Source of the DNA: a virus
Lineage: Duplodnaviria > Caudoviricetes
DNA: 64,000 bases
Direction: 5' to 3' (one strand)
Virus record (IMG/VR): IMGVR_UViG_2558860244_000005
Span: 15,338 to 79,337 of that record
This document shows positions 596 to 54,945 of the stretch, in pieces. The notes beneath the pieces are model-generated. The model saw only the letters and a program-made list of their open reading frames with translations. It did no database searches and was not told the origin of the DNA. The position numbers were made by a program, and so were the translations under genes. Each line of letters opens with the position of its first letter. Positions within the stretch are counted from its first letter, which is position 1.

Positions 596-1612
596 ATGGG
601 CGGCATGGCCGATGCAACCTTCACCGCCGTAGACCTGTCGCGCATTCCGCTGCCTGACGCTGTCGAGGAACTCGATTTCGAGACTCTCTTCGCGCGGGCG
701 CTTGCGCGCATGAAAGCGCTGATGGCGGAAGAAGGCGTCGAGTTCGACGGCCGGGAGAGCAACCCTTCCACCCGCGTCCTTCAGGTCTTCGCCTACGAGG
801 TCCAGCTGCTGCTGCAGCGCCTCAACGAAGCCGTGCGCGCCGTCATGGTCGCCTACGCCGTCGAGAATGACCTCGACAATCTCGCCGCCGGTTTCGGCGT
901 GGTCCGCCGGACCATCACCCCCGCCGACGATGTGCTCGGCATTCCGGCCGTGATGGAGAGCGACACCGAATTTCGCCGCCGCATTGTCCTGGCACCGGAA
1001 GGCTATTCGGTTGCCGGTCCCGAGGGCGCCTACATCTACCATGCGCTCTCGGCCCATCCCAATGTACTCGACGCCAGTGCCACCAGCCCCGCGCCTGACG
1101 ACATCCGCGCGATCGTGCTGGGCGTCCTGCAATCCTATGCTGCCAGCAATGCGCTGGTGACGGCGATGACCAACGCGCTCGACGGCGCGATCTGGCCCGG
1201 CGAAGTCATCGTCTCGCTCCTGTCCCGCGTCGATAGCGGCGCCGCCAGCGCGGATCTGATCGAGGACGTCGGCGCGTACCTGTCCAGCGAGGACATCCGC
1301 CCGCTGACCGACCATGTCATCACGCAGTCTGCCGAGATCGTTCCCTACACCGTCGAGGGCACGATCAAGACGTTTTCCGGCCCCGATGGCGGCGTGGTCA
1401 TGGATGCCGCGCTCGCCAGCGCCAAGGCCTATACCGACGAGAGCCACCGGCTCGGCCGCGATATCACCCTGTCGGGCCTGCATGCCGCGCTGCACGTCGA
1501 AGGCGTCCAGAACGTTCAGCTGACTCAGCCACCGGCCGACATTGTCATCTCGCGCACGCAGGCGCCGTACTGCACCAAGATCGACGTCACTTACGCGGGC
1601 ATCGACGAATGA
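596..1612 (+). CDS. J: Baseplate assembly protein, P2 gpJ family
   Basis: VDLSRIPLPDAVEELDFE N-terminus, LAPEGYSVAGPEGAY motif, RPLTDHV. Confidence 0.95.
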   Translation: MGGMADATFTAVDLSRIPLPDAVEELDFETLFARALARMKALMAEEGVEFDGRESNPSTRVLQVFAYEVQLLLQRLNEAVRAVMVAYAVENDLDNLAAGFGVVRRTITPADDVLGIPAVMESDTEFRRRIVLAPEGYSVAGPEGAYIYHALSAHPNVLDASATSPAPDDIRAIVLGVLQSYAASNALVTAMTNALDGAIWPGEVIVSLLSRVDSGAASADLIEDVGAYLSSEDIRPLTDHVITQSAEIVPYTVEGTIKTFSGPDGGVVMDAALASAKAYTDESHRLGRDITLSGLHAALHVEGVQNVQLTQPPADIVISRTQAPYCTKIDVTYAGIDE

Positions 1613-2160
1613 CCTTCGCGTCGCTCCTGCCGCCCGGCTCCACGGCATTGCAGAAGGCCCTCGAACGGGTCGGCTCGGAGATGCTCGACATCCCGATCCT
1701 CGTCCGCGCGGTGAAGTCCGCCGACGACAGCCCGCTGCAGTTCCTGCCGTGGTTGGCGTGGGAGCGCTCGCTCGACAACTGGTCATCCGACTGGCCCGAG
1801 GCGATCCGCCGCGAGCGCGTCCGCCAGGCGATCCCCATCGCGCGGCGCAAGGGCACGGCGGCGTCCGTGCGCGCCGTGGTCCAGAGCTTCGGCGGATCGG
1901 TCGCGCTGCGCGAATGGTGGCAGATGGAGCCGAAGGGCATTCCGCACACCTTCGATCTCGTGCTCAACCTCGAACAGAAGGGCGCGCCCGCCAGCGCCGC
2001 CTTCGTCGATCAGGTCATAGCCGAGGTCAGCCGCGCCAAGCCGGTGCGCAGCCACTTCACCTTCACCCAAGGCATCAACGCCGCCGCAGATGTCGGCTTG
2101 ATCGCGACCGTTCGTCCCACCCTCTTCGCCCGCCTGTCCTGCACGGCCACGGCGGTTTGA
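1609..2160 (+). CDS. I: Phage tail protein I, P2 gpI family
   Basis: SLLPPGST...FLPWLAWERSLDNW...RKGT motif; overlaps the J stop (ATGA). Confidence 0.95.
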   Translation: MTFASLLPPGSTALQKALERVGSEMLDIPILVRAVKSADDSPLQFLPWLAWERSLDNWSSDWPEAIRRERVRQAIPIARRKGTAASVRAVVQSFGGSVALREWWQMEPKGIPHTFDLVLNLEQKGAPASAAFVDQVIAEVSRAKPVRSHFTFTQGINAAADVGLIATVRPTLFARLSCTATAV

Positions 2161-2171
2161 CCGGAGCACCC

Positions 2172-4349
2172 ATGGCCCTCACCATCACCGTCACCAATGC
2201 GGGCCGCGCCGCGCTTGTGAACGCCGCCAACACCGGCACCGCTGCGGTCACGATCGCGCAGGTCGGCGTTTCCGGCGTCGCGGTGGCCCCCAGCCCCACG
2301 GCCACCATCCTGCCCGGCGAAAGCAAGCGCATCGCCACCCTCTCGGGCGACGTGGTCGCGGACGATACGATTCACATGATCGTCCGAGACGAAGGCACGG
2401 CGGTCTACACGGTGCGCAGCTTCGGGCTCTACCTTGCCGACGGCACCCTGTTCGCGATCTACGGCCAGGCCGATCCGATCCTCGAAAAATCCTCGCAGGC
2501 GATCATGCTGCTCGCGATCGACGTCCAGTTCGCCGACGTCGCCGCCGCGCAGCTGACATTCGGCGACACGAACTTTCTCAACCCGCCCGCAACCACCGAG
2601 ACGATGGGCGTGGTCGAACTGGCGACCCTTGCCGAGGCCATCGCCGGTCTCGATTCCTCGCGCGTTCCAGCCGCCAAGATGATGAAGGATGCCGTCGCCG
2701 CGTGGATGGATTCCCGGTTCGGCGCGAACAATGCGGGCATCTGGCATCCGGGTAACGATGGCGCCGGTTCCGGCCTCGACGCCGATTTGCTCGACGGTCA
2801 GCATGGCAGCTACTACGCCAATATTCCCGCGCGCCTCGGTTTCTGGCCGGTGCAACAGGGCACCGGCTACAGCCAGACGACAAATACCGTCAAGATTGGT
2901 TGGAGCAACGCGAGCCGTCTGAAGGCGACCGTTGACACCACCGATCTCGGCAATGTGGTTTTCGACAGCAACATCGCAGATGTCTGGCGTTCGTCGAACG
3001 ATGGCGCCGGTTCCGGCCTTGATGCCGACCTGCTCGATGGGCAGGACGGCAGCTACTACACGAACATCATCGCTCGGCTCGGCTACCAGCCCTCGAACAG
3101 GGCCGGTGACACCTTCACCGGAACGGTCACGGTGCCGAGCCTCCGAATCAACGGCTCCGCCGGGTCAAACGGATTTTCAGCCGGAACGGGTGACGGTGCC
3201 ACTTACAGCGTCTTCAACCTCGCCATGGAGTGTTGGTACGGCCTCGGCATCCGGACCTACGACGGTTCGGTGAACGGATTTTACGATGCTCGCGCCGGTC
3301 GATGGGACGTTAAGTCGGGCTATCGCATCAACGGCGTGGACGTCTGGCACCCGTCGAACGACGGCGCCGGTTCGGGGATGGATGCCGATCTGCTCGATGG
3401 GCAGGACGGTAGCTATTACACCGCGATCCCGGCCCGGCTTGGCTTTACCCCGGTGCAGCAGGGCACAGGGGTCGGGCACCTGTCTAACGTCATCAAAATC
3501 GGTTGGAGCGGATCACGGGTAAAGCTGACTGTCGATTCAACCGATATGGGCGGCCTTGTTACCGATGCCCACCTTAACAGCGCGGGTTTGCCGCACAACG
3601 GATCTGCCATGCGCCGCAATGGCAATGACCTTTGGGGGCCGGATAACGATGGTTCGGGATCGGGCCTCGACGCCGACTTGCTCGACGGGCTGCATGCCGG
3701 GAGCTTTGCGCGCGTCGACCTTGGCTCCGGCGCCGCATTCGCAGGCGGCGTAACCGCACCCTATCTGAAGTCGAGCGGGACGGCAGATGTCTCTCAGCAA
3801 ATGAGCGTGGGCCATCTTGTTGTAACTTACGGCGACCTGGTCATCGCTCGGACGAGCAGCGCGTGGGGTTATGTCGTCCGGCCAAACGTCGCAGGCGCCC
3901 GGAACTTGCAGTTTGCCTGCGAAGGCGCGGTTACGCTCGATAACTGCGAAATCAACGCCTACAATGTGACGACGCTCGGCAATAAGGTTTGGAACGCGGG
4001 CAACGATGGCGCAGGCTCGGGGCTGGATGCCGATATGCTGGACGGCTACCACGCCAGCGCCTTTGTCCCTGTCGGCGACCTGTCGGCAAGAGGATGGACC
4101 CGCCTGACGAATGGCCTGCTATTGCAGTGGGGAACCCAAACGTTTGGGGCAGACTCCTATGGCACAATCAACTTCCCGATCGCGTTTAGCTCGGCCTGTT
4201 TTTACATCGGATCGGGCTGCGCAACCGAAGTGGGCAACGGCAACGCCCAGGCTAATGGCCCGCTCCCCTACTCCGTAACCACCACCTACGCGAGCATGTA
4301 CAACGCCGCCCCCGCTGCAAACGCCTGGTGGCTGGCGATCGGCGTGTAA
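2172..4349 (+). CDS. H: Tail fibre protein (gpH-like) with internal repeats and gp53-like C-terminus
   Basis: True start MALTITVTNAGRAALVNA at 2172; ATTETMGVVELAT collar motif; C-terminal WTRLTNGLLLQWG; position after gpI. Confidence 0.9.
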   Translation: MALTITVTNAGRAALVNAANTGTAAVTIAQVGVSGVAVAPSPTATILPGESKRIATLSGDVVADDTIHMIVRDEGTAVYTVRSFGLYLADGTLFAIYGQADPILEKSSQAIMLLAIDVQFADVAAAQLTFGDTNFLNPPATTETMGVVELATLAEAIAGLDSSRVPAAKMMKDAVAAWMDSRFGANNAGIWHPGNDGAGSGLDADLLDGQHGSYYANIPARLGFWPVQQGTGYSQTTNTVKIGWSNASRLKATVDTTDLGNVVFDSNIADVWRSSNDGAGSGLDADLLDGQDGSYYTNIIARLGYQPSNRAGDTFTGTVTVPSLRINGSAGSNGFSAGTGDGATYSVFNLAMECWYGLGIRTYDGSVNGFYDARAGRWDVKSGYRINGVDVWHPSNDGAGSGMDADLLDGQDGSYYTAIPARLGFTPVQQGTGVGHLSNVIKIGWSGSRVKLTVDSTDMGGLVTDAHLNSAGLPHNGSAMRRNGNDLWGPDNDGSGSGLDADLLDGLHAGSFARVDLGSGAAFAGGVTAPYLKSSGTADVSQQMSVGHLVVTYGDLVIARTSSAWGYVVRPNVAGARNLQFACEGAVTLDNCEINAYNVTTLGNKVWNAGNDGAGSGLDADMLDGYHASAFVPVGDLSARGWTRLTNGLLLQWGTQTFGADSYGTINFPIAFSSACFYIGSGCATEVGNGNAQANGPLPYSVTTTYASMYNAAPAANAWWLAIGV
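2742..4064 (+). repeat. Five copies of W-x3-NDG(A/S)GSG(L/M)DAD(L/M)LDG in the tail fibre
   Basis: Read directly from the translation; two copies of PARLGFxPVQQGTG...KIGWS also present. Confidence 0.9.
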
Positions 4350-4361
4350 GGACTAAAAACC

Positions 4362-4745
4362 ATGGCCCTCTTTTTCAGCGCCGCGACCCTCGGCTTTTAT
4401 GACGACACCGTTCACGCCACCATGCCGCCCGACGTGCGGCCGATCACCCGCGACGCGCATACCGCCATCATGGACGCCGCGAGTTCGGGCATGATGATTG
4501 CGGCAAACGACAACGGCGACCCGATTGCCGTTCCGCCGCCGCCCCCACCTGCGGATCAACTCGCCCGCCAGCTGCGCACCAAGCGCGACAAGCTGCTCGC
4601 CGCGTCGGACTTCACGCAAGTACCCGATAGCCCCTTCACCGCCGCCGAGCGCGAGGAATGGCGGCTCTATCGGCAGGCCCTGCGCGACCTCCCCGAAACC
4701 ACCCTCGATCCGTCCGCCGTCGCTTGGCCGAACGCTCCCGCCTGA
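4362..4745 (+). CDS. Tail fibre assembly chaperone
   Basis: LRTKRDKLLAASDFTQVPDSP...WRLYRQALRDLP...WPNAP motif; follows the fibre gene. Confidence 0.85.
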   Translation: MALFFSAATLGFYDDTVHATMPPDVRPITRDAHTAIMDAASSGMMIAANDNGDPIAVPPPPPPADQLARQLRTKRDKLLAASDFTQVPDSPFTAAEREEWRLYRQALRDLPETTLDPSAVAWPNAPA

Positions 4746-4755
4746 AAGGAACACA

Positions 4756-5019
4756 ATGTCCGACCTGAAGATCAAGATCGGCGCCTACGACGCCACCACC
4801 CGCTCCGTGCCGGTCACGTTCACCAGCGGTGACATCAAGCACATGCGCTCGGTGAACGCCGTCCTGAAGGACGACGGGGCTTACGACAAAGCGGCTACGA
4901 AGGCCCGCGTCGACGAAGTGGCGCGCGGTGTGGCTCACAAGATCATCCTCGGCGTCCTGACCATGCCGGTTGTGGAGGAGGCCGCAACGTCGGTCGCCGA
5001 TTCCGCTGCTGCTAAGTAA
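4756..5019 (+). CDS. Hypothetical phage protein (MSDLKIKIGAYD...)
   Basis: AAGGA RBS before ATG 4756; GC3-rich phage-like codon usage. Confidence 0.75.
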   Translation: MSDLKIKIGAYDATTRSVPVTFTSGDIKHMRSVNAVLKDDGAYDKAATKARVDEVARGVAHKIILGVLTMPVVEEAATSVADSAAAK

Positions 5020-5025
5020 GTGATC

Positions 5026-5185
5026 GGCGGCACTTCACGCCGCCATAATTCCCCTTTACGGAAGGGGGTCTCGGATGTTCCCGCATCTCGAAACCAGCGA
5101 GCCTGCACTCGCACTCTCCGGGCAGCGCGCCTACCCCTTCAAGCACCCTTCCGCGTCTCAGGCGCGGAAGGGACATCGTGCAGGA
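5026..5185 (+). ncRNA. Structured 5' leader of the Dam-like gene (four hairpins; long-range stem overlaps the RBS)
   Basis: Stems 5026-31/5039-44, 5051-56/5062-67, ~5067-77/5084-95, 5146-55/5163-72 and CCTGCAC 5102-08/GTGCAGG 5178-84. Confidence 0.5.
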
Positions 5186-5193
5186 TCAATCAC

Positions 5194-6009
5194 ATGTCTA
5201 CCCCTTTTGTTCTCGTTCGACCTGTTTCTCCCCCGGCCGGTTATATCGGGGGAAAACGGAACCTCTCCAAGCGCATCTGCGCCATTCTCGACCGCACTCC
5301 ACACACCAGCTACGCCGAGCCTTTCGTGGGCATGGGCGGCATCTTCCTGCGCCGTTCGCGGCGCCCGAAGGCCGAGGCGATCAACGATATTTCCGGTGAC
5401 GTAGTGGGCCTGTTCCGCTGCCTCGCCGAGCACTATCCCTATCTCGTCGACATGCTGCGCTTCCGCATTACCAGCAGGGCCGAGTTCGAGCGCCTGCTCG
5501 GACAGGATCCCGAACGGCTGACCGACCTGCAGCGCGCGGTGCGTTTTCTCTACCTCCAGCGCCTGGCCTTCGGCGGCAAGGTCTCGGGCCGCACCTTCGG
5601 CGTCAGTGCCTCGGCACCCGCCCGCTTCGACGTCAGCAAGATCGAGCCGATGCTCGCCGACATCCATGACCGCCTGCAGTCGGTTGTGATCGAGCGCCTG
5701 CCCTACAGCGACTTCATCCGCCGGTATGACCGCGAAGGCGCCCTGTTCTACCTCGATCCGCCCTATTGGGCCTGCGAGAAGGACTATGGCCCCGACGTCT
5801 TCACCCGCGAGGACTTCGCCGCGCTCGCCGACCAGCTGGCGGGCATCAAGGGCAAGTTCCTGATGTCGCTCAACGACAATGAGGGTGTGCGCCAGACCTT
5901 CGGCCGCTTCATCGTGGCGCCGATCAACACGACCTACAGCATCGGGGCAGCCTCGCGCCCGGCGCGCGAGGTGTTGATCAGCAACTACCCACCGGCCGCA
6001 AACGATTGA
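5194..6009 (+). CDS. dam: DNA adenine methyltransferase, D12/Dam-like class
   Basis: YIGGKR, EPFVGMGG (FxGxG) and FYLDPPY motifs; start MSTPF at 5194 after AGGA. Confidence 0.9.
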   Translation: MSTPFVLVRPVSPPAGYIGGKRNLSKRICAILDRTPHTSYAEPFVGMGGIFLRRSRRPKAEAINDISGDVVGLFRCLAEHYPYLVDMLRFRITSRAEFERLLGQDPERLTDLQRAVRFLYLQRLAFGGKVSGRTFGVSASAPARFDVSKIEPMLADIHDRLQSVVIERLPYSDFIRRYDREGALFYLDPPYWACEKDYGPDVFTREDFAALADQLAGIKGKFLMSLNDNEGVRQTFGRFIVAPINTTYSIGAASRPAREVLISNYPPAAND

Positions 6010-6018
6010 AACTAAAAG

Positions 6019-6083
6019 TTAGCTGACCGACAAAATTCCGCTTGCAGTTTTGCTGGCCAGCTAATATTTAGCTGACCAGCAAA
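6019..6083 (+). promoter_or_regulatory. Operator/promoter of the XRE-IrrE cassette
   Basis: 16-bp inverted repeat with 1 mismatch, TTTGCTGGCCAGCTAA-TAT-TTAGCTGACCAGCAAA (6049-6083); extra half-site TTAGCTGACC 6019-28; TTGCAG-N17-TATTTA overlaps it. Confidence 0.7.
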
Positions 6084-6147
6084 CTTTTCCGGCTCGTCGG
6101 CGTTGGGACAATGAGCGGAGGGTTTGTCGGTTCACTAGGAGAAGATC

Positions 6148-6510
6148 ATGAACCAGTTTGGGAAATTGCTTCGGCAGGAGCGCAAGGAACGTCAGATGAC
6201 GCTCGGCGATCTCGCAAAGAAGCTGGGCATGAGTGTTCCTTACCTCAGCCAGATCGAAACTGGAATTAAAGCTGTACAGGAAGATTTGGTCGAAAAAATC
6301 GTCCGAGAATTGGGGTTGATCGGCGATGACGCAAATAAAATTCATCGCGCCGCTGCGCTGACAAGAAGCATGTTTTCGATCCGATTGGCAGGTAATGCCA
6401 AAGCAGAAGACCGAGTGCTTGCGGCTTCGTTAGCCTCCGGCTTTGCTCGCTTGTCGCCGGAACGGAAAGAAGAGCTTCGCCGGATCATGGAGGATGTCAC
6501 TCGTGGATAA
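6148..6510 (+). CDS. XRE-family HTH transcriptional regulator
   Basis: FGKLLRQERKERQMTLGDLAKKLGMSVPYLSQIETG; AGGAG RBS. Confidence 0.9.
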   Translation: MNQFGKLLRQERKERQMTLGDLAKKLGMSVPYLSQIETGIKAVQEDLVEKIVRELGLIGDDANKIHRAAALTRSMFSIRLAGNAKAEDRVLAASLASGFARLSPERKEELRRIMEDVTRG

Positions 6511-7108
6511 TGGTCGTATTGTGGCTCGTCGCACTCGCCGTGAAATCGAACGTATTGCTGCTGAAGCGCGCGCTGACTTGGGCCTTTCGCCCGATGGCAG
6601 AGTGTCGATGCTTCCTATCCTCGAGCAGGTTCTCTACGAAGTTATCGAAGGTTACGATTTTCGCGTCTGCGAGGACCGCGAGATGGGTAACATGGAAGGT
6701 CTTACCGACGACCTTAAGCCGATCATCTATCTCAAAAACAGTACGTACCTTGCGCTCGAACGCGGCGAAAATCGGCCCCGCATGACCGCTGCGCACGAGT
6801 TTGGGCATTTGTTGATGCACTGTCAGATGCCCACTTATCGTGCATTCTCGACCGAGTACGACCCGCTCTACGACCCGGAGCGCCAAGCCAATGTTTTCGC
6901 AGCAGCCTTTTTGATGCCGGAGGATGCGTTTCGACGCTGCACAACGGTCAAGGAAGCGATGAAGGCATTTGGCGTAAGCGCCGACGCAGTTCTGGTCCGC
7001 GCACGCAACCTCGAACACAAGCTTACGCAGGAACGCGCAATTCTGACTGTTAAGCCGGTCCGGAAATTGAACAAGAAAAAGGGGACTAGCAAGCGCAAGT
7101 CCCCCTAG
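6503..7108 (+). CDS. ImmA/IrrE-family Zn metallopeptidase
   Basis: RMTAAHEFGHLLMH (HExxH) and ERQANVFAAAFLMP; GGAGG RBS then GTG 6503. Confidence 0.9.
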   Translation: MDNGRIVARRTRREIERIAAEARADLGLSPDGRVSMLPILEQVLYEVIEGYDFRVCEDREMGNMEGLTDDLKPIIYLKNSTYLALERGENRPRMTAAHEFGHLLMHCQMPTYRAFSTEYDPLYDPERQANVFAAAFLMPEDAFRRCTTVKEAMKAFGVSADAVLVRARNLEHKLTQERAILTVKPVRKLNKKKGTSKRKSP

Positions 7109-7239
7109 GAAAAGCCTGGATCAGAAGCGGCCCCTGAAAAGGGTGAGCTATCCTAAACCGACTCAATGCAAGCGCCGAAATAGGCGCAAACGGTTACGGA
7201 AGCAAGAACGAGCGGCCGCAAAAAAGTAGGAGACCCATT

Positions 7240-7368
7240 GTGGCCACCACTCCTCCCCCTGGGAAGAAGTGGGTGTTCGTGAAGTGGACGACTACCAAGA
7301 GCGGAAAGCGCATCCATGCCAGCTGGTATGGCAAGAAGGCTTTCCCGATCTTGGTGGACGACATCTGA
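7240..7368 (+). CDS. 42-aa basic microprotein (not in ORF track)
   Basis: AGGAG RBS 7228-32, GTG start, MATTPPPGKKWVFVKWTTTKSGKRIHASWYGKKAFPILVDDI, then a strong terminator. Confidence 0.7.
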   Translation: MATTPPPGKKWVFVKWTTTKSGKRIHASWYGKKAFPILVDDI

Positions 7369-7397
7369 CGTACACCTAGTTCGATCCTGACTTTCAA

Positions 7398-7427
7398 ACT
7401 GGCTCTGAGCGCAAGCTCAGAGCCAGT
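7398..7427. terminator. Strong hairpin terminator closing the XRE-IrrE cassette
   Basis: 13-bp perfect stem ACTGGCTCTGAGC / GCTCAGAGCCAGT with a GCAA tetraloop. Confidence 0.8.
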
Positions 7428-7452
7428 GGCTTATTGTCGCTGCAGTACTTGG

Positions 7453-7480
7453 GCATTTGGACAGCCGCCCAGCCAAATGC
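7453..7480 (+). promoter_or_regulatory. Late-promoter dyad TGG-N12-CCA upstream of gpV
   Basis: GCATTTGG-N12-CCAAATGC; same motif as 531-564. Confidence 0.6.
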
Positions 7481-7521
7481 AGCCCCGCGAAAGCTGATGC
7501 TTCTCGCGCCATGGTCGCACG

Positions 7522-8076
7522 ATGGCACAATCCAACGACCATGAGCAGCTGACCGGCGAGGTCATTCAGGTGGGCACTGTTGCGTCCATCGACCACGCCG
7601 CGCGGACCTGCACCGTCCAGCTGGGCGATCTCGAAACCAGCGATTTGCCATGGGTCGCCCTGCTCGCCGGGCGCGTGAAACTCTGGTGCCCGCCCTGCGC
7701 AGGCGAACAGTGCGCCGTCCTGTGCCCCGAGGGCGATCTCGACAACGGCCTTGTCCTGCCTGGCATCTACTCGGACGCCAATTCGCCAAGCACGTCGGAC
7801 CCCGACGTCTTCGAACTCGAATTCCCTGATAGCGCCGTCATTTCCTACAACCACGCGACGCACGCGCTCACCGTCACCCTGCCCGCAGGCGGCACCGCCG
7901 CGCTGACCGCGCCCGGCGGCGTCACGATCGAGGGCGACGTCGCGATCAAGGGCAATGTCTCGATCGAGGGCAAGGCCGAAGCGTCCGAGGACGTCATCGG
8001 CGGCGGAATCAGCCTCAAGAGCCACAAGCACACCGGCGTTGCCGCTGGCTCCGCCCAGAGTGGAACCGCCGTCTGA
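7522..8076 (+). CDS. V: Baseplate spike, P2 gpV family
   Basis: IQVGTVASID, WCPPCAGEQ, C-terminal SHKH iron-binding motif. Confidence 0.95.
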   Translation: MAQSNDHEQLTGEVIQVGTVASIDHAARTCTVQLGDLETSDLPWVALLAGRVKLWCPPCAGEQCAVLCPEGDLDNGLVLPGIYSDANSPSTSDPDVFELEFPDSAVISYNHATHALTVTLPAGGTAALTAPGGVTIEGDVAIKGNVSIEGKAEASEDVIGGGISLKSHKHTGVAAGSAQSGTAV

Positions 8077-8423
8077 TGGCCGCCATGGACGAGACCACCG
8101 GCGAACTGATCGAGGGCGACGACGATATCCGCCAGTCGGCAGGAATCATCCTGCGCACCCGCATCGGCTCGTGCGTCGGCCGCCGCGAGTTCGGCTCGCT
8201 GGTGCCGGACCTGATCGACCAGCCCATGACCCGCGCGAACATCCTGCGGATCTACGCGGCCACCGTTATCGCCCTCACCCGCTGGGAAGACCGCATCCGC
8301 CTAGATCAGGTCGGCCTCATGGCCGGTGCCACGCGCGGCTCTGCCGTCGTCGTTCTCGACACCCGGCACACCGGCACCGCGTCGAACGCCCGCTCCCGCC
8401 TTCTCGTGCCCGTCTCTCTCTAA
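8076..8423 (+). CDS. W: Baseplate wedge, P2 gpW / gp25-like
   Basis: IRQSAGIILRTRIGSCVGRREFGS...ALTRWEDRI. Confidence 0.9.
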   Translation: MAAMDETTGELIEGDDDIRQSAGIILRTRIGSCVGRREFGSLVPDLIDQPMTRANILRIYAATVIALTRWEDRIRLDQVGLMAGATRGSAVVVLDTRHTGTASNARSRLLVPVSL

Positions 8424-8438
8424 CCAAGGATCCTGTTC

Positions 8439-9611
8439 ATGGCCTTCAAGCACGGCATTACCCTCACCGAGATCAGCGACGGCGCCCGAACGCTCACCGC
8501 AGTCTCCACTTCCATCATCGGCCTGGTCGCCACCGGCGCCGACGCCGATGCCACCACGTTCCCGCTCGACACCCCCGCGCTCGTCACCGACATCGAGACG
8601 GCGATCGGCAAGGCGGGCACGGACGGCACGCTGGCCAAGTCCCTGCGCGCTATCGCCGACCAGACCCGTGCGGTTGTTGTTGTCGTGCGCGTCGAGGAAG
8701 GCGTGGACGCGGCCGAAACCGCCAGCAATGTCATCGGCACCACGACGCCCGAGGGCAAGAAGACGGGCATGCAGGCCCTGCTCGATGCGAAGTCGCATGT
8801 GGGCGTGAAGCCCAAGATCCTGGGCACCCCCGGCCTCGAAACGCAGGCGGTGACCAGCGCCCTCGTCGTTATCGCCAAGAAGCTGCGCGGCTTTGCCTAC
8901 GCCCGCGTCGTCGCCGATACCGTGGCCGAAGCGTCGCTCTACCGCGCCAACTTCTCCGCGCGCGAACTGATGCTGCTGATGCCGGACTTCCTGCTGTTCG
9001 ACACCGCAACCAGCACCAACGTCACCGGCTACGCCGCCGCCTATGCCATGGGCCTGCGGGCGCTGATCGACACCCAGACCGGCCCACACAAGACGCTCTC
9101 GAACATCGCCGTCAGCGGCGTCGTCGGCGTCAGCCAGCCCATCCGCTGGGATATCGAGGATGACACCAGCGAGGCCAACCTCCTCAACGCTTCCGAGGTC
9201 ACTGCGCTGGTCCGCACCGATGACGGCTTCCGGTTCTGGGGCAACCGCACCTGCTCGGACGATCCGCTGTTCGCGTTCGAAAGCACGGTGCGCGTCGCCC
9301 AGCTGCTCGCCGACACGGTGGTCGCGGGCATGCTCTGGGCCATCGACAAGCCGCTGAACCCGGCGCTCGCCAAGGATATCGTCGAGACCGTCAACGGCTT
9401 CGGCCGCCAGCTGAAGACGCAGGGCATCGTGCTCGGCTTCAACGCCAAGTACGACGAGGCGAACAACAGCACCGCCAGCCTCAAGGCGGGCAAGCTGCGC
9501 ATCGACTATGACTACACGGTGCCGCCGCCGCTCGAAGACCTCGGCTTCAACCAGCGCATCACCGACAGCTACTTCGCGGACTTCGCGAACCAGCTGGCCG
9601 AAGCGGCCTGA
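8439..9611 (+). CDS. FI: Tail sheath protein
   Basis: FKHGITLTEI N-terminus, GFRFWGNRTC, PPLEDL. Confidence 0.95.
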   Translation: MAFKHGITLTEISDGARTLTAVSTSIIGLVATGADADATTFPLDTPALVTDIETAIGKAGTDGTLAKSLRAIADQTRAVVVVVRVEEGVDAAETASNVIGTTTPEGKKTGMQALLDAKSHVGVKPKILGTPGLETQAVTSALVVIAKKLRGFAYARVVADTVAEASLYRANFSARELMLLMPDFLLFDTATSTNVTGYAAAYAMGLRALIDTQTGPHKTLSNIAVSGVVGVSQPIRWDIEDDTSEANLLNASEVTALVRTDDGFRFWGNRTCSDDPLFAFESTVRVAQLLADTVVAGMLWAIDKPLNPALAKDIVETVNGFGRQLKTQGIVLGFNAKYDEANNSTASLKAGKLRIDYDYTVPPPLEDLGFNQRITDSYFADFANQLAEAA

Positions 9612-9650
9612 TCCGGCCGCCCTTCCCCAAATCGATCATAGGAGCCAGCC

Positions 9651-10163
9651 ATGGGATTCCCCCGCGTCCTCAAGGATCAGATGCTGTTCAACGAAGGCAA
9701 TGACTACCAGGGCGATGCCAAGACGGTCGGCCTGCCCAACCTCACCCGCAAGATGGAGGAGTATCGCGGCGCCGGTATGAGCGGCGCCGTTTCTCTCGAT
9801 ATGGGCCAGGAGGCCATGGAGGCTTCCATGACCTTCGCCGGGCCGATGCGCGACATCATCCGCCAGTACGGCACGCCCACGGTGGACGGCGTCTACATGC
9901 GCTTCGCCGGGAACTACCAGCGCGACGACACCGCTGAAATCGACACCGTCGAAGTGATCCTGCGCGGCCGGTTCTCGGAGATTGAGTTCGGCGATCAGGA
10001 AACCGGCGAGGTCGGCGACTTCAAGGCCACCATGGCCGTCGCTTACTACAAGCTGGTCTGGAATGGCCGCACCGAGATCGAGATCGACCCGATCAACATG
10101 GTCGAAGTCGTCAACGGCATCGACCTGCTCGCCGCGCGCCGCAACGCCCTCGGCATGTTCTGA
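9651..10163 (+). CDS. FII: Major tail tube protein
   Basis: LPNLTRKMEEYRGAGM...YYKL...EIDPINM. Confidence 0.95.
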   Translation: MGFPRVLKDQMLFNEGNDYQGDAKTVGLPNLTRKMEEYRGAGMSGAVSLDMGQEAMEASMTFAGPMRDIIRQYGTPTVDGVYMRFAGNYQRDDTAEIDTVEVILRGRFSEIEFGDQETGEVGDFKATMAVAYYKLVWNGRTEIEIDPINMVEVVNGIDLLAARRNALGMF

Positions 10164-10234
10164 TCCCTTGGCCCGGCCACACGCCGGGCCGCCTCCCCTT
10201 CCCCGCCGAACTATTCTGACATCGGAGATCCACA

Positions 10235-10585
10235 ATGACCCGTACCAAGGCAAATCTGGCCGCATCGACCGCGATCGCCACCGCCGCTACCCCGGAAGTT
10301 CGCACCGTCACGCTCGACGCACCGTTCACGCGCGGCGAAACCAAGATTGAGACCGTGCTTGTCCGCAAGCCCAAGTCCGGCTCGCTGCGCGGCCTCTCGC
10401 TGTCGGGCCTCCTCAACCTCGAATACGGCGCGCTGGAAACGCTGCTGCCGCGCATCACCGATCCAATGCTGTCGAAGCAGGATATCGCCAACCTCGATCC
10501 CGCCGACCTCACCCAGCTGGGCAGCGAGGTCATGGATTTTTTGCTGCCGAAGGGCGCGAAGCAGGATCTCTCCCAGCGGACGTAA
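10235..10585 (+). CDS. E: Tail assembly chaperone gpE
   Basis: VRKPKSGSLRGLSL...LLPRIT...LDPADL; slippery TTTTTTG near the 3' end. Confidence 0.9.
   Translation: MTRTKANLAASTAIATAATPEVRTVTLDAPFTRGETKIETVLVRKPKSGSLRGLSLSGLLNLEYGALETLLPRITDPMLSKQDIANLDPADLTQLGSEVMDFLLPKGAKQDLSQRT
10537..10543 (+). other. Programmed -1 frameshift site TTTTTTG (gpE to gpE+E')
   Basis: Same heptamer as P2 E; the -1 frame is open into E'. Confidence 0.85.
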
Positions 10586-14689: not shown

Positions 14690-15399
14690 TCGGCGTCGAG
14701 ATCCTCAGATTTTGCGCCTAGGGCCATTATTTCTCCGACTAGACCGGTCGCGCAGACAATTGTACCAGTTTGCACTAGGCTTGCCGCCTCTTTCAGTTCT
14801 GCAAGCGCGCTGATTTTGCCGTCGCTATCCAGCGCGGCCTTCATCTTTTTTGCGGCAGACCATTTTTGCACATAGGCGTTCTCGCATACTTCACGGGTCT
14901 TAGTGAGTTTGTCGAACGAGGCTTTTCCAACACTCACAGGAACCTTAACTTCCCTGATGCCAGAAGGCGTCTTCAAGCAAGCTGTCTCCATTTCATTCGC
15001 TGCACTGAACAGGTTGACCAGATCTCCGGCCTTGCTTGCCTCAGCTACGCCCGCCCCCGCACGATCGCAGGGGCCAATCACCTGCATGATCCCGCGATAG
15101 AAGGCGATCGCATCGGCCTTTGCTGATGCCGTAGGCCTATCGGGTACTTCTGGAGCAGGCTCTCCCTTCCCCGCGATGTACGTGCATGTGCCAAGTGCGA
15201 GGACGAGGAGCAGGCACCCAATCCCTCCATACTTGGCGCCCTTCTTCGCATCTGCTTTCGCGAGCGAGATTTCTTCAGGCGTAAACTCCGTTCCGCAATG
15301 CTTGCAGAGAGACGCGTCCACTTTGATCGTCTCTTTACACTTAGGACAGATCCGTTGCCCTAGTTTCGTACCCTTTGCCAATGTAATCCCCCTGCTCAT
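14686..15399 (-). CDS. Zinc-ribbon + single-TM + exported-domain protein (moron)
   Basis: CPKC...CKHC, hydrophobic GGIGCLLLVLALGTCTYIAG, Cys-containing C-terminal domain; AT-richer. Confidence 0.75.
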   Translation of the reverse strand: MSRGITLAKGTKLGQRICPKCKETIKVDASLCKHCGTEFTPEEISLAKADAKKGAKYGGIGCLLLVLALGTCTYIAGKGEPAPEVPDRPTASAKADAIAFYRGIMQVIGPCDRAGAGVAEASKAGDLVNLFSAANEMETACLKTPSGIREVKVPVSVGKASFDKLTKTREVCENAYVQKWSAAKKMKAALDSDGKISALAELKEAASLVQTGTIVCATGLVGEIMALGAKSEDLDAD

Positions 15400-15899: not shown

Positions 15900-16562
15900 T
15901 CAGGTGCGGCGGAATACGCCAGCTACGCGGCCGATCACGGACACTTCGCCATCTGCAGCGACCTCCGGTGGAACCTGCGGATTATCGGCCATCAGCTTGT
16001 ACTTCCCATCCGGCAACACCCGGACGCGCTTGATCGTGCCAAGCCCGCCATAGTTCAGCGCCCAGATCCCTTCCTGCCGGTCGATGATCTGCTGAGACCG
16101 GTCAATCATAACGATGTCCCGGTCGTTGATGGTCGGGTACATGCTGTCCCCTTGGGGCTTCACGATCGATAGATGGGCCACGGCCGAATGGGTGAAGTTC
16201 CGTACCCAGTCTTCGGGAATCCACCGATCCACCCGCTCCATCACATTCTCATCGAGAAACCCCAGGCCCATGCCAATCGAGAGGTCAATCTCTTCGACCT
16301 TAACGAGCCCCATCTGCGCCGCGATCTCAGCTGGCGTCGGCGGTATAAACGCGTCTTCGCGGGGATCATCGATCTCGCCTGTCAAATAGGCAGGGGAGGT
16401 TTGCAGTACGCGAGCAATCTTGTGCAGATGTGAAGAATTTGCGGACTGCCCGGTAACGACCTTGCCGATCGTCTGCTGTGTCACACCAACCTCACGCGCT
16501 AAGGCAGACTGAGACATACCCAGTTCACGCATTCGTTCGGCAACACGGTCGCTTTTGATCAT
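15900..16562 (-). CDS. cI: CI-like repressor (HTH + S24 peptidase)
   Basis: MSQSALAREVGVTQQTIGK HTH; QGDSMYP and TIKRV catalytic Ser/Lys motifs. Confidence 0.95.
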   Translation of the reverse strand: MIKSDRVAERMRELGMSQSALAREVGVTQQTIGKVVTGQSANSSHLHKIARVLQTSPAYLTGEIDDPREDAFIPPTPAEIAAQMGLVKVEEIDLSIGMGLGFLDENVMERVDRWIPEDWVRNFTHSAVAHLSIVKPQGDSMYPTINDRDIVMIDRSQQIIDRQEGIWALNYGGLGTIKRVRVLPDGKYKLMADNPQVPPEVAADGEVSVIGRVAGVFRRT

Positions 16563-53995: not shown

Positions 53996-54264
53996 GCCGC
54001 TACCTCGCTGGACTTTTTGGAGAAATCGCCAGTGGACCCCTGCCGCGAGGGCGCGGCATCATCCAAGCCATGTTGAAGCTCGCTCACGTCAGCCGGAAGC
54101 TCGAGACCCGCGTCCTTCGCGGCGAGGCGCAGATGCGCCATCCGGGATTGAGGGATGCCGTTCTTACGCCAACTATGGACGGTCGAGAGCGGGGCTTCGA
54201 TCATCTTGGCCACAGCTGTACTGCCGCCCAGATGGTCTATCACGGTGTTAGCGAGAGCGTTCAT
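53992..54264 (-). CDS. cro: Cro-like protein
   Basis: IDHLGGSTAVAKMIEAPLSTVHSWRKNGIP. Confidence 0.85.
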   Translation of the reverse strand: MNALANTVIDHLGGSTAVAKMIEAPLSTVHSWRKNGIPQSRMAHLRLAAKDAGLELPADVSELQHGLDDAAPSRQGSTGDFSKKSSEVAA

Positions 54265-54274
54265 GCTCGTGATA

Positions 54275-54337
54275 TGCGATATTCGCAGACTTCAATCAAG
54301 CATAAAGTCTGCGATAATAGTAGTTGCGATAATCGCA
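54275..54337. promoter_or_regulatory. OR operators: three TGCGA-N3-TCGCA palindromes
   Basis: 54275-87, 54310-22 (degenerate), 54325-37. Confidence 0.85.
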
Positions 54338-54357
54338 GACGGCGGCACGGAACAGCT

Positions 54358-54945
54358 ATGACCCCGACCCAAATCCGCGCCGAGCTTGATGCCCGCAATA
54401 TGTCTATTCGTGACCTCGCGGAGGCTACCGGCATCGCCGAGAACAAGCTGACGAAATCACTCGGAAAGGTTGGCCGAAGGATCACTTACGATGAGATGCA
54501 GGCGATCCAAGGGGTGCTGGACCCGGCCGACCTTGAGCCCCGTATAAGAACCGTTCCCGTTTTGGGATCGGTGCCTGCGGGCAAGTTCACTGCCGCACTC
54601 CAAACGGGCGGTCGTAGAATGGCCGTGTCTGATCCTGAAACCCCCCATAACGCATATGCGCTAACAGTCGTTGGGAACTCGATGGATCTGATTGTTCCCA
54701 ACGGGACAATGCTCGTAATCGACCCAGACGATAAAGCGTTATGGCCCGGACGTAGATATGTAATTGAAAATGCAGACGGCGAAACCACGTTCAAGGAGTT
54801 TCAAGCAGACCCGGCACGCCTCGTGCCTTGTTCCAGCGATGATTCGCACCGGGAAATTCTGCTAGGGGACGAGCCAATTAAGGTCGTCGGCCGCGTTTAC
54901 TCTTACAGTTTGCGAGACAGTGATTTGCCTATGCGCCGCACGTGA
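54358..54945 (+). CDS. cI: CI-like repressor (HTH + S24)
   Basis: MSIRDLAEATGI HTH; VVGNSM and TTFKE catalytic motifs. Confidence 0.92.
   Translation: MTPTQIRAELDARNMSIRDLAEATGIAENKLTKSLGKVGRRITYDEMQAIQGVLDPADLEPRIRTVPVLGSVPAGKFTAALQTGGRRMAVSDPETPHNAYALTVVGNSMDLIVPNGTMLVIDPDDKALWPGRRYVIENADGETTFKEFQADPARLVPCSSDDSHREILLGDEPIKVVGRVYSYSLRDSDLPMRRT

Follow-up and report, generated by a model that had tools for sequence, protein, structure and literature searches.

A phage cassette linking an XRE repressor and an ImmA-like peptidase to a conserved microprotein with a structured leader and a candidate antisense RNA

A stretch of 64,000 nucleotides (nt) from a virus of the Caudoviricetes (IMG/VR record IMGVR_UViG_2558860244_000005, positions 15,338 to 79,337) was analyzed and is referred to as the window; positions are counted from its first letter. 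It was found to carry a cassette of three co-directional genes encoding an XRE-family repressor, an ImmA-like zinc metallopeptidase of the M78 family and a microprotein of 42 amino acids (aa). The XRE-M78 subfamily was linked almost one-to-one to this unnamed microprotein family. The repressor-protease pair is of a well-known kind, and what is new is the link to the microprotein, the leader that precedes the microprotein gene and an antisense RNA predicted within that leader. It was proposed that the cassette is a mobile, self-contained phage 'moron' with two control layers and one small cargo gene, in which a repressor that can be cleaved, together with antisense RNA and folding of the mRNA, would hold back a harmful basic microprotein until a stress or infection signal arrives. 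This reading as a whole was given a probability of about 50%.

The gene order XRE, M78, microprotein on one strand was kept in relatives at ~30% protein identity, as followed by tblastn and iterated hidden Markov models. An M78 gene was located directly upstream in 29-30 of the 40 dereplicated microprotein loci with enough upstream sequence, and a divergent HTH_3 protein occupied the XRE position in three loci that seemingly lacked XRE. The reverse search was blind to the microprotein: 80 viral M78 loci were fetched by M78 alignment, 78 of them had room downstream, and in 66 of these 78 the microprotein was encoded 3' on the same strand, mostly at a distance of ~100-300 nt. The viral contigs were mutually related, and the locus counts do not equal independent events. 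A co-occurrence with XRE-M78 pairs, which a first-pass annotation of this DNA had put forward as a check, was thus tight in both directions.

The microprotein was also recorded in other company. A leader of the window type and the microprotein gene followed an HTH_17 and PIN_3 pair in one locus (L039, 3747-5114), a HicB-like antitoxin gene preceded the microprotein in the L070 group, and a serine recombinase stood beside it in the L019 group. Two further loci (L020 and L026) carried it after lysis genes, and in L026 the M78 gene was absent and the leader intact. Because it was found behind HTH and PIN, HicB-like and lysis genes and beside a recombinase, the microprotein behaves as an independent cargo, open to combination with various regulator- or antitoxin-like partners. 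Its core was conserved at ~50% identity, compared with ~30% for XRE and M78, and this high conservation, together with the PIN- and HicB-type company, suggests a conserved cellular target rather than one internal to the cassette. It was also observed that the microprotein of the L070 group had a sense promoter of its own (TTGATA-17-TATAAT).

The open reading frame (ORF) of 42 aa with its own AGGAG ribosome-binding site, as described by the first-pass annotation, was present in the window, with the Shine-Dalgarno sequence at 7228-7232, 7 nt 5' of the GTG start codon. The family core was IFxxxITTKDGxxIYAxxYGKKAFxIxV. Five close homologues of 40-45 aa and 57-95% identity were retrieved by a word-indexed search of 5.8 billion proteins, and pattern scans added 3 genomic loci and viral loci numbering first 20 and later 60. 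When 1.84 billion cluster representatives (clusters at 50% identity) were searched with a profile, 866 matched at E<=1e-3, 113 of them at E<=1e-10. Among the best 150 of the 866, the lengths were 36-120 aa, mostly 36-60 aa, and the longer members look like over-called starts or run-on ends. In each locus a good Shine-Dalgarno sequence preceded the inferred start by 6-10 nt, and the Sphingomonas loci retained the GTG codon. The ratio of nonsynonymous to synonymous polymorphism (pN/pS), calculated over an ungapped 18-codon block of 67 distinct sequences, was 0.21 in frame vs 1.30 and 1.70 in the shifted frames. These results identify a real gene under purifying selection and bear out the conservation on which the first-pass annotation had made its proposal depend.

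The microprotein was basic, hydrophilic and aromatic. It was modeled by AlphaFold2 with the family alignment as three strands and a short helix, at a predicted local distance difference test (pLDDT) score of 86.5, and this basic, aromatic, beta-rich composition suggests nucleic-acid binding. No family for the microprotein was present in Pfam, NCBIfam or PADLOC; phrog_4533, annotated as of unknown function, matched it weakly, and matches in the ESM Atlas were to clusters of 'hypothetical protein' only. Foldseek searches of the Protein Data Bank and VIA-align wide with the AlphaFold2 model returned no usable match, the protein being too small. Two matches among the Protein Data Bank sequences were set aside. 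One was to SlyA, a MarR-family regulator (E 0.013), and was too short to rely on. The other was to ribosomal protein bL34 (FRAxxxTKNGxxVLA; profile E 0.32, hhalign probability 13%); the similarity of the microprotein core FxxxxTTK(D/N)GxxIxA to GFRARMATKNGRxVLA of bL34 is probably due to chance or convergence. No match at E<=0.01 was obtained by tblastn with two microprotein variants against 50,697 GenBank phages, and the phage examples of the triad were retrieved by an M78 protein query instead. Two side observations concern the family. One viral contig (L044) carried two tandem microprotein copies, at 4235-4291 and 4751-4807, the second with an ambiguous base; either a true duplication or an artefact of assembly may underlie this. 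A tRNA gene was located shortly 3' of the microprotein in L028 (5857-5930) and L066 (6029-6086), with Rfam tRNA scores of 68 and 51 bits, respectively.

The repressor was matched by Pfam HTH_31 (8.6e-12) and HTH_3 (1.2e-11), and by the PADLOC capH profile (3.6e-7) over residues 2-116. The M78 gene, with an alternative GTG start at 6503, overlapped the end of the XRE gene (6494-6510) in the same direction. Its product was matched by Pfam Peptidase_M78 (7.7e-13), with the HEFGH motif intact, and by PADLOC capP (1.3e-15); RmrA fusion models scored much like the capH and capP profiles. The CapP structure 7t5t was the sole solved structure retrieved by sequence (4.4e-5), and it was aligned over its residues 89-190 of 291 via HExxH and E-x-Q-A-x-x-F-A. 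Residues H101, E102, H105, H109, E129, Q131 and A132 were invariant in 16 diverse M78 relatives, and the peptidase carried both HExxH and the downstream motif with the glutamate ligand (E-x-Q/E-A-N-x-F-A). It was 204 aa long in the window and ~170 aa elsewhere, and M78 was the only domain found; therefore, it was considered ImmA-like in architecture. The XRE repressor and the HExxH metallopeptidase named by the first-pass annotation, and their likeness to ImmR/ImmA and CapH/CapP, were upheld by these Pfam, PADLOC and structure matches.

Three copies of a palindrome were located over the start of the cassette. The window contained 7 strand-matches to this palindrome vs 0.75 expected, a number reached in 0 of 100 shuffles, and the operator triplet occurred once in the 4.86-Mb genome, at the cassette promoter. 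The three-site layout was kept in two relatives (L017 and L016), in which the half-site sequences differed. A single 16-bp inverted-repeat operator over a sigma70-like promoter had been claimed before. The repeat itself was real (6049-6064 and 6068-6083, 94% identity, 3-nt gap), but it represents two of the three palindrome copies. The promoter failed the consensus scan, which called 0 sigma70 sites in 5900-7600, and what was left was a weak match seen by eye, TTGCAG (6042-6047), 17 nt, TATTTA (6065-6070), which overlapped the operators. The sense promoter was judged against the E. coli consensus, from which the promoters of the host may differ.

The spacer between the M78 and microprotein genes was conserved in length and in predicted structure. 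In most loci of different phyla, the YA..YGKKAF motif lay at a nearly constant ~190-240 nt from the M78 stop codon. Three Sphingomonas loci showed 83% mean nucleotide column identity over 7060-7440, while their M78 proteins were only 36-64% identical to that of the window. The window segment 7074-7432 was folded to -157.2 kcal/mol vs -112.6 +/- 5.9 kcal/mol for shuffles (z = -7.63). An RNAalifold alignment of the window clade (the window with L016, L017, L039 and L100) gave 89 pairs, 20 of them with compensatory changes. These pairs formed the hairpin at the M78 end, a long GCGGCC(C)/(G)GGCCGC stem in which one G-C pair had switched to A-U (7127-7132 with 7214-7219 in the window), and a helix between the Shine-Dalgarno GGAGA and a TCTCC/TTTC motif just 5' of the terminator. 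No structure emerged from RNAalifold when 17 leaders were taken together in a mixed MAFFT alignment, and a homogeneous subset was needed. No Rfam family matched the leader. Strong structure and conservation of the window leader are well supported by these folding and alignment data.

Relatives of low guanine-cytosine (GC) content were compared separately. A four-helix leader was predicted for ten of them, with 85.5% of the cells paired vs 36-49% with slid partners; 17 pairs were changed on both sides, and 0 of 500 shuffles were as good. The helix next to the start codon paired the Shine-Dalgarno AAAGGAG with an upstream CUUUUU...GCAAG arm and used U-G pairs that are possible on the sense strand only. 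Additionally, a leader segment of 8-16 nt was complementary to part of the hairpin that directly follows the stop codon, either its loop or its flank, and the partners changed together, as in the cognate leader and tail pairs CAACTGGT with ACCAGTTG, GGCTGGTTAAA with TTTAACCAGCC, CAACTGACA with TGTCAGTTG and TGGAATCGCA with TGCGATTCCA. The energies of leader-tail duplexes were confounded by GC content, and a run-length test within GC classes was used instead. For 24 low-GC loci the longest Watson-Crick run was 7.96 nt in cognate and 6.29 nt in non-cognate combinations, and 0 of 10000 permutations were as high.

The 3' end of the transcript is predicted to take part in the same fold. The motif ACTTTC (7390-7395) would pair with the Shine-Dalgarno sequence or the purine-rich leader, and the conserved GGCTT (7428-7432) with AAGCC at 7112-7116. 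The 13-bp terminator with a GNRA loop, reported by the first-pass annotation, was found with a GCAA loop; the terminator stems differed in sequence at every locus yet stayed paired, and a GTGGCT motif after the hairpin was conserved. Prediction and covariation both point to a fold that hides the ribosome site and has long-range 5'-3' pairing.

The same leader carries signals on the opposite strand. The most invariant leader bases of the low-GC relatives read TAnCAC ... TTTTGCAAG on the sense strand, and on the opposite strand they correspond to a canonical promoter, TTGC(A/G)A, 17 nt, TGnTA(T/C)AAT. A sigma70-type promoter matching at least 9 of 12 positions was called on the minus strand of 37 of the 64 dereplicated leaders, and on the plus strand of 13 of the 64. 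The minus-strand promoters were clustered 52-61 nt before the start codon and mostly had a 17-nt spacer and an extended -10 element. The first leader hairpin had an A-run on its 5' side, which on the minus strand becomes a hairpin followed by a T-run. Consensus matching, the basis of all these promoter and terminator calls, placed a minus-strand promoter at 5458 to 5430 and a terminator at 5371 to 5347 in one relative (L028). In coliphage LLS an 11/12 antisense promoter was placed at 3102 to 3075, and no antisense terminator was called.

In the window, the candidate antisense terminator lay within the last codons of the M78 gene. The hairpin at 7081-7104 was preceded by AAAAA on the sense strand and was thus followed on the minus strand by TTTTTCTT, and both the A-run and the hairpin, which covaried, were kept in relatives. 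By inspection, a sense block GGA(A/C)GCAA(A/G)A at 17-nt spacing from TAT/TGCTAT recurred in the majority of the more distant high-GC relatives, and the A-run and hairpin likewise. At the site that corresponds to the candidate antisense promoter, low-GC and E. coli relatives had canonical promoters on the minus strand. The candidate antisense RNA of the window would be ~95 nt long and end at the 7081-7104 hairpin. In the relatives an antisense RNA of ~80-95 nt is predicted, which would overlie the upstream part of the leader over half its length and take in the segment complementary to the 3' end. Antisense control of the RNA layer in the window was considered moderately supported by these consensus matches. 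A second 49-aa 'hypothetical protein' of RefSeq, overlapping the M78 stop codon and located in the leader/antisense region, was observed in E. coli KSC1031 (L184, 4389-4538); it is possibly a miscalled gene on top of the RNA element.

Table 1. Positions of the cassette, its elements and selected other genes in the window.
Feature	Position	Strand	Details
Cassette	6019-7432		operators, XRE repressor, M78 peptidase, leader, 42-aa ORF, hairpin terminator
Palindromic operators O1, O2, O3	6019-6034, 6049-6064, 6068-6083		three 16-bp copies of TTWGCTGRYCRRCWAA
XRE-family repressor gene	6148-6510	+	120 aa; helix-turn-helix (HTH) at residues 3-60; ~60-residue C-terminal extension
ImmA-like M78 zinc metallopeptidase gene	6494-7108	+	204 aa; basic C-terminal tail
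Candidate antisense terminator hairpin	7075-7104	minus	GGGGACT/AGTCCCC; stems 7081-7087 and 7098-7104
Structured leader of microprotein mRNA	7109-7239	+	conserved; spacer of 130-170 nt across loci
Candidate antisense promoter	7177-7205	minus	-35 TTGCTT (7200-7205), 17 nt, -10 TATTTC (7177-7182)
Microprotein gene	7240-7368	+	42 aa; GTG start; net charge ~+6
Transcript 3' end	7390-7432	+	ACTTTC, terminator hairpin, GGCTT
Terminator hairpin	7398-7427	+	13 bp, GCAA loop; terminator-like in consensus scan
D12-class N6-adenine DNA methylase gene	5185-6009		directly upstream of the cassette; Pfam
gpV-type baseplate spike gene	7522-8076		downstream neighbour of the cassette; Pfam
S24-type prophage repressor gene	15900-16562	minus	

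The cassette was placed within the tail module of a P2-like prophage, with tail fibre genes upstream and genes downstream that look like sheath, tube and tape-measure genes by ORF size and order only. It was AT-richer, as noted earlier, with a GC content of 0.48-0.58 across ~6000-7500 vs 0.63-0.70 in both flanks. Genes 3' of the microprotein varied among the relatives (terminase, SocA/Panacea, DUF6037 or nothing recognisable). These differences and the presence of the operator triplet only at the cassette's own promoter agree with the earlier description of the cassette as self-contained. Since the phage has a separate S24 repressor, the XRE/M78 pair is not the prophage's own immunity switch, as had also been stated by the first-pass annotation. 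The closest genomic relatives of the cassette were in Sphingomonas sp. Leaf10 and S. pollutisoli, and the prophage host is for that reason probably Sphingomonas. The window's own genome had a single microprotein copy. A leader-microprotein DNA query matched 2 of 400 other genomes of the family, one of which (G413) had the whole triad and the other a 25-base match, and the microprotein was present in 1 of 400 other Alphaproteobacteria; the cassette is rare within its lineage.

Several observations concern the surroundings. The tail order in 596-10585 appears to be (J, I, H, G)-like genes, methylase and cassette, then gpV, gpW, sheath and tube, where the names are guesses from ORF size and order, with a Pfam check for gpV and the methylase only. 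The V/W baseplate genes appear to follow the fibre genes here, whereas they precede them in P2, and the accessory genes (methylase and cassette) occupy the junction between tail fibre and baseplate genes. A methylase 58% identical to that of the window adjoined the cassette copy of S. pollutisoli (L017) on the opposite strand. A second Peptidase_S24 protein (a 291-aa ORF) was encoded at 54070-54945, remote from the late genes of the prophage; a host LexA/UmuD-like protein and a component of another element are both conceivable.

The whole triad was also found in coliphage LLS (PQ299149), whose host is E. coli K-12. There XRE corresponds to gp28 and M78 to gp27, both annotated as 'hypothetical', and an unannotated microprotein of 49 aa (L182, 3119-3268) began 115 nt after gp27, in a 625-nt gap that is 'empty' in the annotation. 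Of 5426 complete E. coli genomes, 34 and a further 13 (~47 in all) had triad relatives. In RefSeq their first two genes are correctly named and the microprotein is a 'hypothetical protein'; standard annotation thus misses it in both settings. In LLS and the E. coli prophages the triad adjoined the phage attachment site (attP) or the integrase gene. The presence of the triad in a phage of E. coli K-12 makes the proposed mechanism testable by routine genetics.

The mechanism was proposed as follows. XRE would bind the three palindromic operators over its own promoter and repress the operon, in which it would be co-transcribed with the ImmA-like zinc peptidase. On the model of ImmR/ImmA, DdrO/IrrE and CapH/CapP, XRE would be cleaved by the peptidase once DNA damage, single-stranded DNA or infection signalled stress, and the cleavage would release transcription of the operon. 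The folded leader would pair away the ribosome site of the microprotein and interact with the 3' end of the message, while a short antisense RNA would start at the promoter within the leader and stop at the hairpin in the final codons of the protease gene. The microprotein would be made only once both layers were lifted. Most likely it would be a growth-inhibiting effector whose target is a conserved cellular nucleic acid or nucleic-acid machine, and its output would serve abortive defence or host shut-down. Three stacked locks (repression, antisense RNA and a hidden ribosome site) suggest a product that is harmful if mistimed. The leader/antisense unit and the other regulator pairs, neither of which the first-pass annotation had noticed, favour a silenced harmful effector over a modulator of the protease. 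A broader claim was considered tentatively: the microprotein may be the founder of a new class of toxins that are type-I-like but soluble and non-membrane, or of abortive-infection effectors, its cellular target deeply conserved and its expression gated by the three stacked locks. The triad would then be a widespread, so far unrecognised, phage-borne system of defence or competition. We regard this broader claim as possible but doubtful.

Several results weigh against the proposal of a guarded effector. The microprotein is hydrophilic and basic, unlike the hydrophobic membrane peptides typical of type I toxins, it had no detectable homology or fold match, and no PADLOC system includes it. The antisense promoter of the window was a weak consensus match seen by eye and was missed by the scan. 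Leader-tail complementarity in the high-GC loci was marginal (260 of 10000 permutations), and in the window itself it was 5 nt. A covariance model of the low-GC leaders (R1) did not detect the leader of the window, and the homology of the two leader types therefore rests on layout, not on sequence. Finally, antirepressors such as P22 ant are typically kept under tight silencing as well, and for this reason silencing does not prove toxicity.

The last point leads to the first alternative, in which the microprotein would have no outside target and would regulate the switch itself, either as an antirepressor or as an activator or inhibitor bound to XRE or M78. This was judged unlikely, even though the microprotein and the M78 subfamily are near-obligate partners and antirepressor genes are also silenced by antisense RNA, as is ant by sar in P22. 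A precedent for such modulation is that of ImmA by RapI, as described in the CapH/CapP preprint. A regulator of this kind would not be expected without M78 and XRE as in L026, behind HTH and PIN or HicB-like genes, or beside a serine recombinase, and its core (~50%) was better conserved than the proteins (~30%) with which it must co-evolve.

A three-component protein toxin-antitoxin system, in which XRE would neutralise the microprotein directly, the peptidase would free it by cutting XRE and the RNA would be secondary, was considered quite improbable. Such systems have been predicted for Xre-COG2856 pairs (Makarova et al. 2009, PMC2701414), and an Xre-peptidase component also occurs in the defence system PD-lambda-2 (PMC9519451). 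The ~60-residue C-terminal extension of XRE could bind a partner, and a HicB-like antitoxin precedes the microprotein in L070. However, a conserved leader of 130-170 nt that sequesters the ribosome site and contains the antisense promoter points to control largely at the RNA level, and the usual toxin partners RelE, PIN and HigB were absent from the window cassette.

Still less credit was given to a lysogeny and induction switch of the ImmR/ImmA type, with the microprotein as a DNA-binding helper such as an excision or early-gene factor. The position of the triad next to attP or the integrase in LLS and the E. coli prophages recalls the order immR-immA-int of ICEBs1, and the best Protein Data Bank sequence match, weak as it was, lay in SlyA. 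The window cassette, in contrast, is located among tail genes of a phage with its own S24 repressor, and its operators occur nowhere else in the genome. Other phages carry it after lysis genes or before the terminase, a variety of positions that suits an accessory gene rather than a core switch. That the 42-aa ORF is a chance frame over a purely RNA element is hardly credible: the region is very strongly structured on both strands, but pN/pS was at least 1.3 out of frame compared with 0.21 in frame, Shine-Dalgarno sites and starts were conserved, and the motif was shared, with different codons, by alphaproteobacterial and low-GC phage sequences, some of the latter near a Lachnospiraceae genome match.

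The guarded-effector proposal was compared with known systems at the level of the locus and of the pair. The layout of the locus resembles that of type I toxin loci. In tisB/istR-1, dinQ/agrB and symE/symR, which are controlled by the SOS response, a small protein gene stands under a damage-responsive repressor and behind a leader that hides the ribosome site. Type I loci, including hok/sok, share long-range 5'-3' pairing and a short cis antisense RNA with its own promoter and terminator, and most of their toxins are hydrophobic membrane peptides, SymE excepted. The microprotein of 42 aa falls within the usual size of such proteins (<~60 aa), and its basic, hydrophilic sequence is not of the usual kind. 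For the antisense RNA, consensus scans gave both promoter and terminator in the low-GC relatives and the promoter alone in coliphage LLS; in the window a good hairpin was accompanied by a weak promoter match that the scan missed. The SOS loci use LexA, whereas here the repressor has a dedicated protease and the protein is basic, hydrophilic and beta-rich. In the immI region of P22, ant is held off by the Mnt and Arc repressors and by sar RNA, so that a repressor and a small antisense RNA both silence a phage gene, as is proposed here. Ant, however, is a large antirepressor specific to the repressor of its own phage, works without a protease and is not known to share the conservation across bacterial phyla that the microprotein shows.

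The repressor-protease pair appears closest to CapH/CapP in sequence and to ImmR/ImmA in architecture. In ICEBs1 and phi105 of Bacillus subtilis, an XRE gene is likewise followed by a co-directional gene of a short, single-domain HExxH protein (M78/COG2856), and the pair is autoregulated and borne on a mobile element, as is proposed here. The gene order in ICEBs1 is immR-immA-int, and the integrase as third gene contrasts with the microprotein and RNA layer of the cassette. ImmR controls the excision and transfer genes of its element, whereas the cassette would control only itself, with operators only at its own promoter and a separate S24 repressor in the prophage. CapH/CapP gave the closest profile and structure matches (capP 1.3e-15, capH 3.6e-7, 7t5t 4.4e-5) and offers the same concept by analogy, a protease-cleavable repressor that switches on a harmful cargo. 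According to the CapH/CapP preprint, a GAF domain is common to CapP and IrrE, and ImmA is modulated by another protein, RapI. The GAF domain is C-terminal in CapP and absent from the window peptidase (204 aa, M78 only). The cargo of CapH/CapP consists of immune operons, including those of cyclic oligonucleotide-based antiphage signalling systems (CBASS); none is adjacent here, where the neighbours are the D12 methylase and gpV. In Deinococcus, DNA damage leads the M78 peptidase IrrE (PprI) to cleave the XRE repressor DdrO, and the same families are present here. IrrE is, however, larger and chromosomally encoded; it acts as a global regulator, has additional domains and a repair regulon, and comes without a microprotein or mobile cassette.

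Literature searches returned no description of the triad, the microprotein family or the leader, and searches with the microprotein motif strings gave nothing relevant. The nearest published ideas are the three-component Xre-COG2856 toxin-antitoxin systems predicted by Makarova et al. 2009 (PMC2701414) and PD-lambda-2, in which an Xre-peptidase component takes part in protection against phage (Vassallo 2022, PMC9519451). Both likewise join XRE and an M78 peptidase to a third, harmful component on mobile elements. In these systems, XRE and the peptidase are usually fused and the toxin is RelE, PIN or HigB, whereas in the window the genes are separate and the third component belongs to a new microprotein family; in L039, HTH and PIN replace XRE and M78. 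Protease-cleavable XRE repressors are already known as switches for mobile elements and immune operons. If the microprotein is the effector, the cassette would be a very small self-contained module leading from stress to output. It would add a small soluble toxin or regulator of a new kind, directed at a conserved target, and would illustrate how silencing at the protein and RNA levels can be stacked on one gene. The triad looks like a new stress-triggered module of the toxin type.

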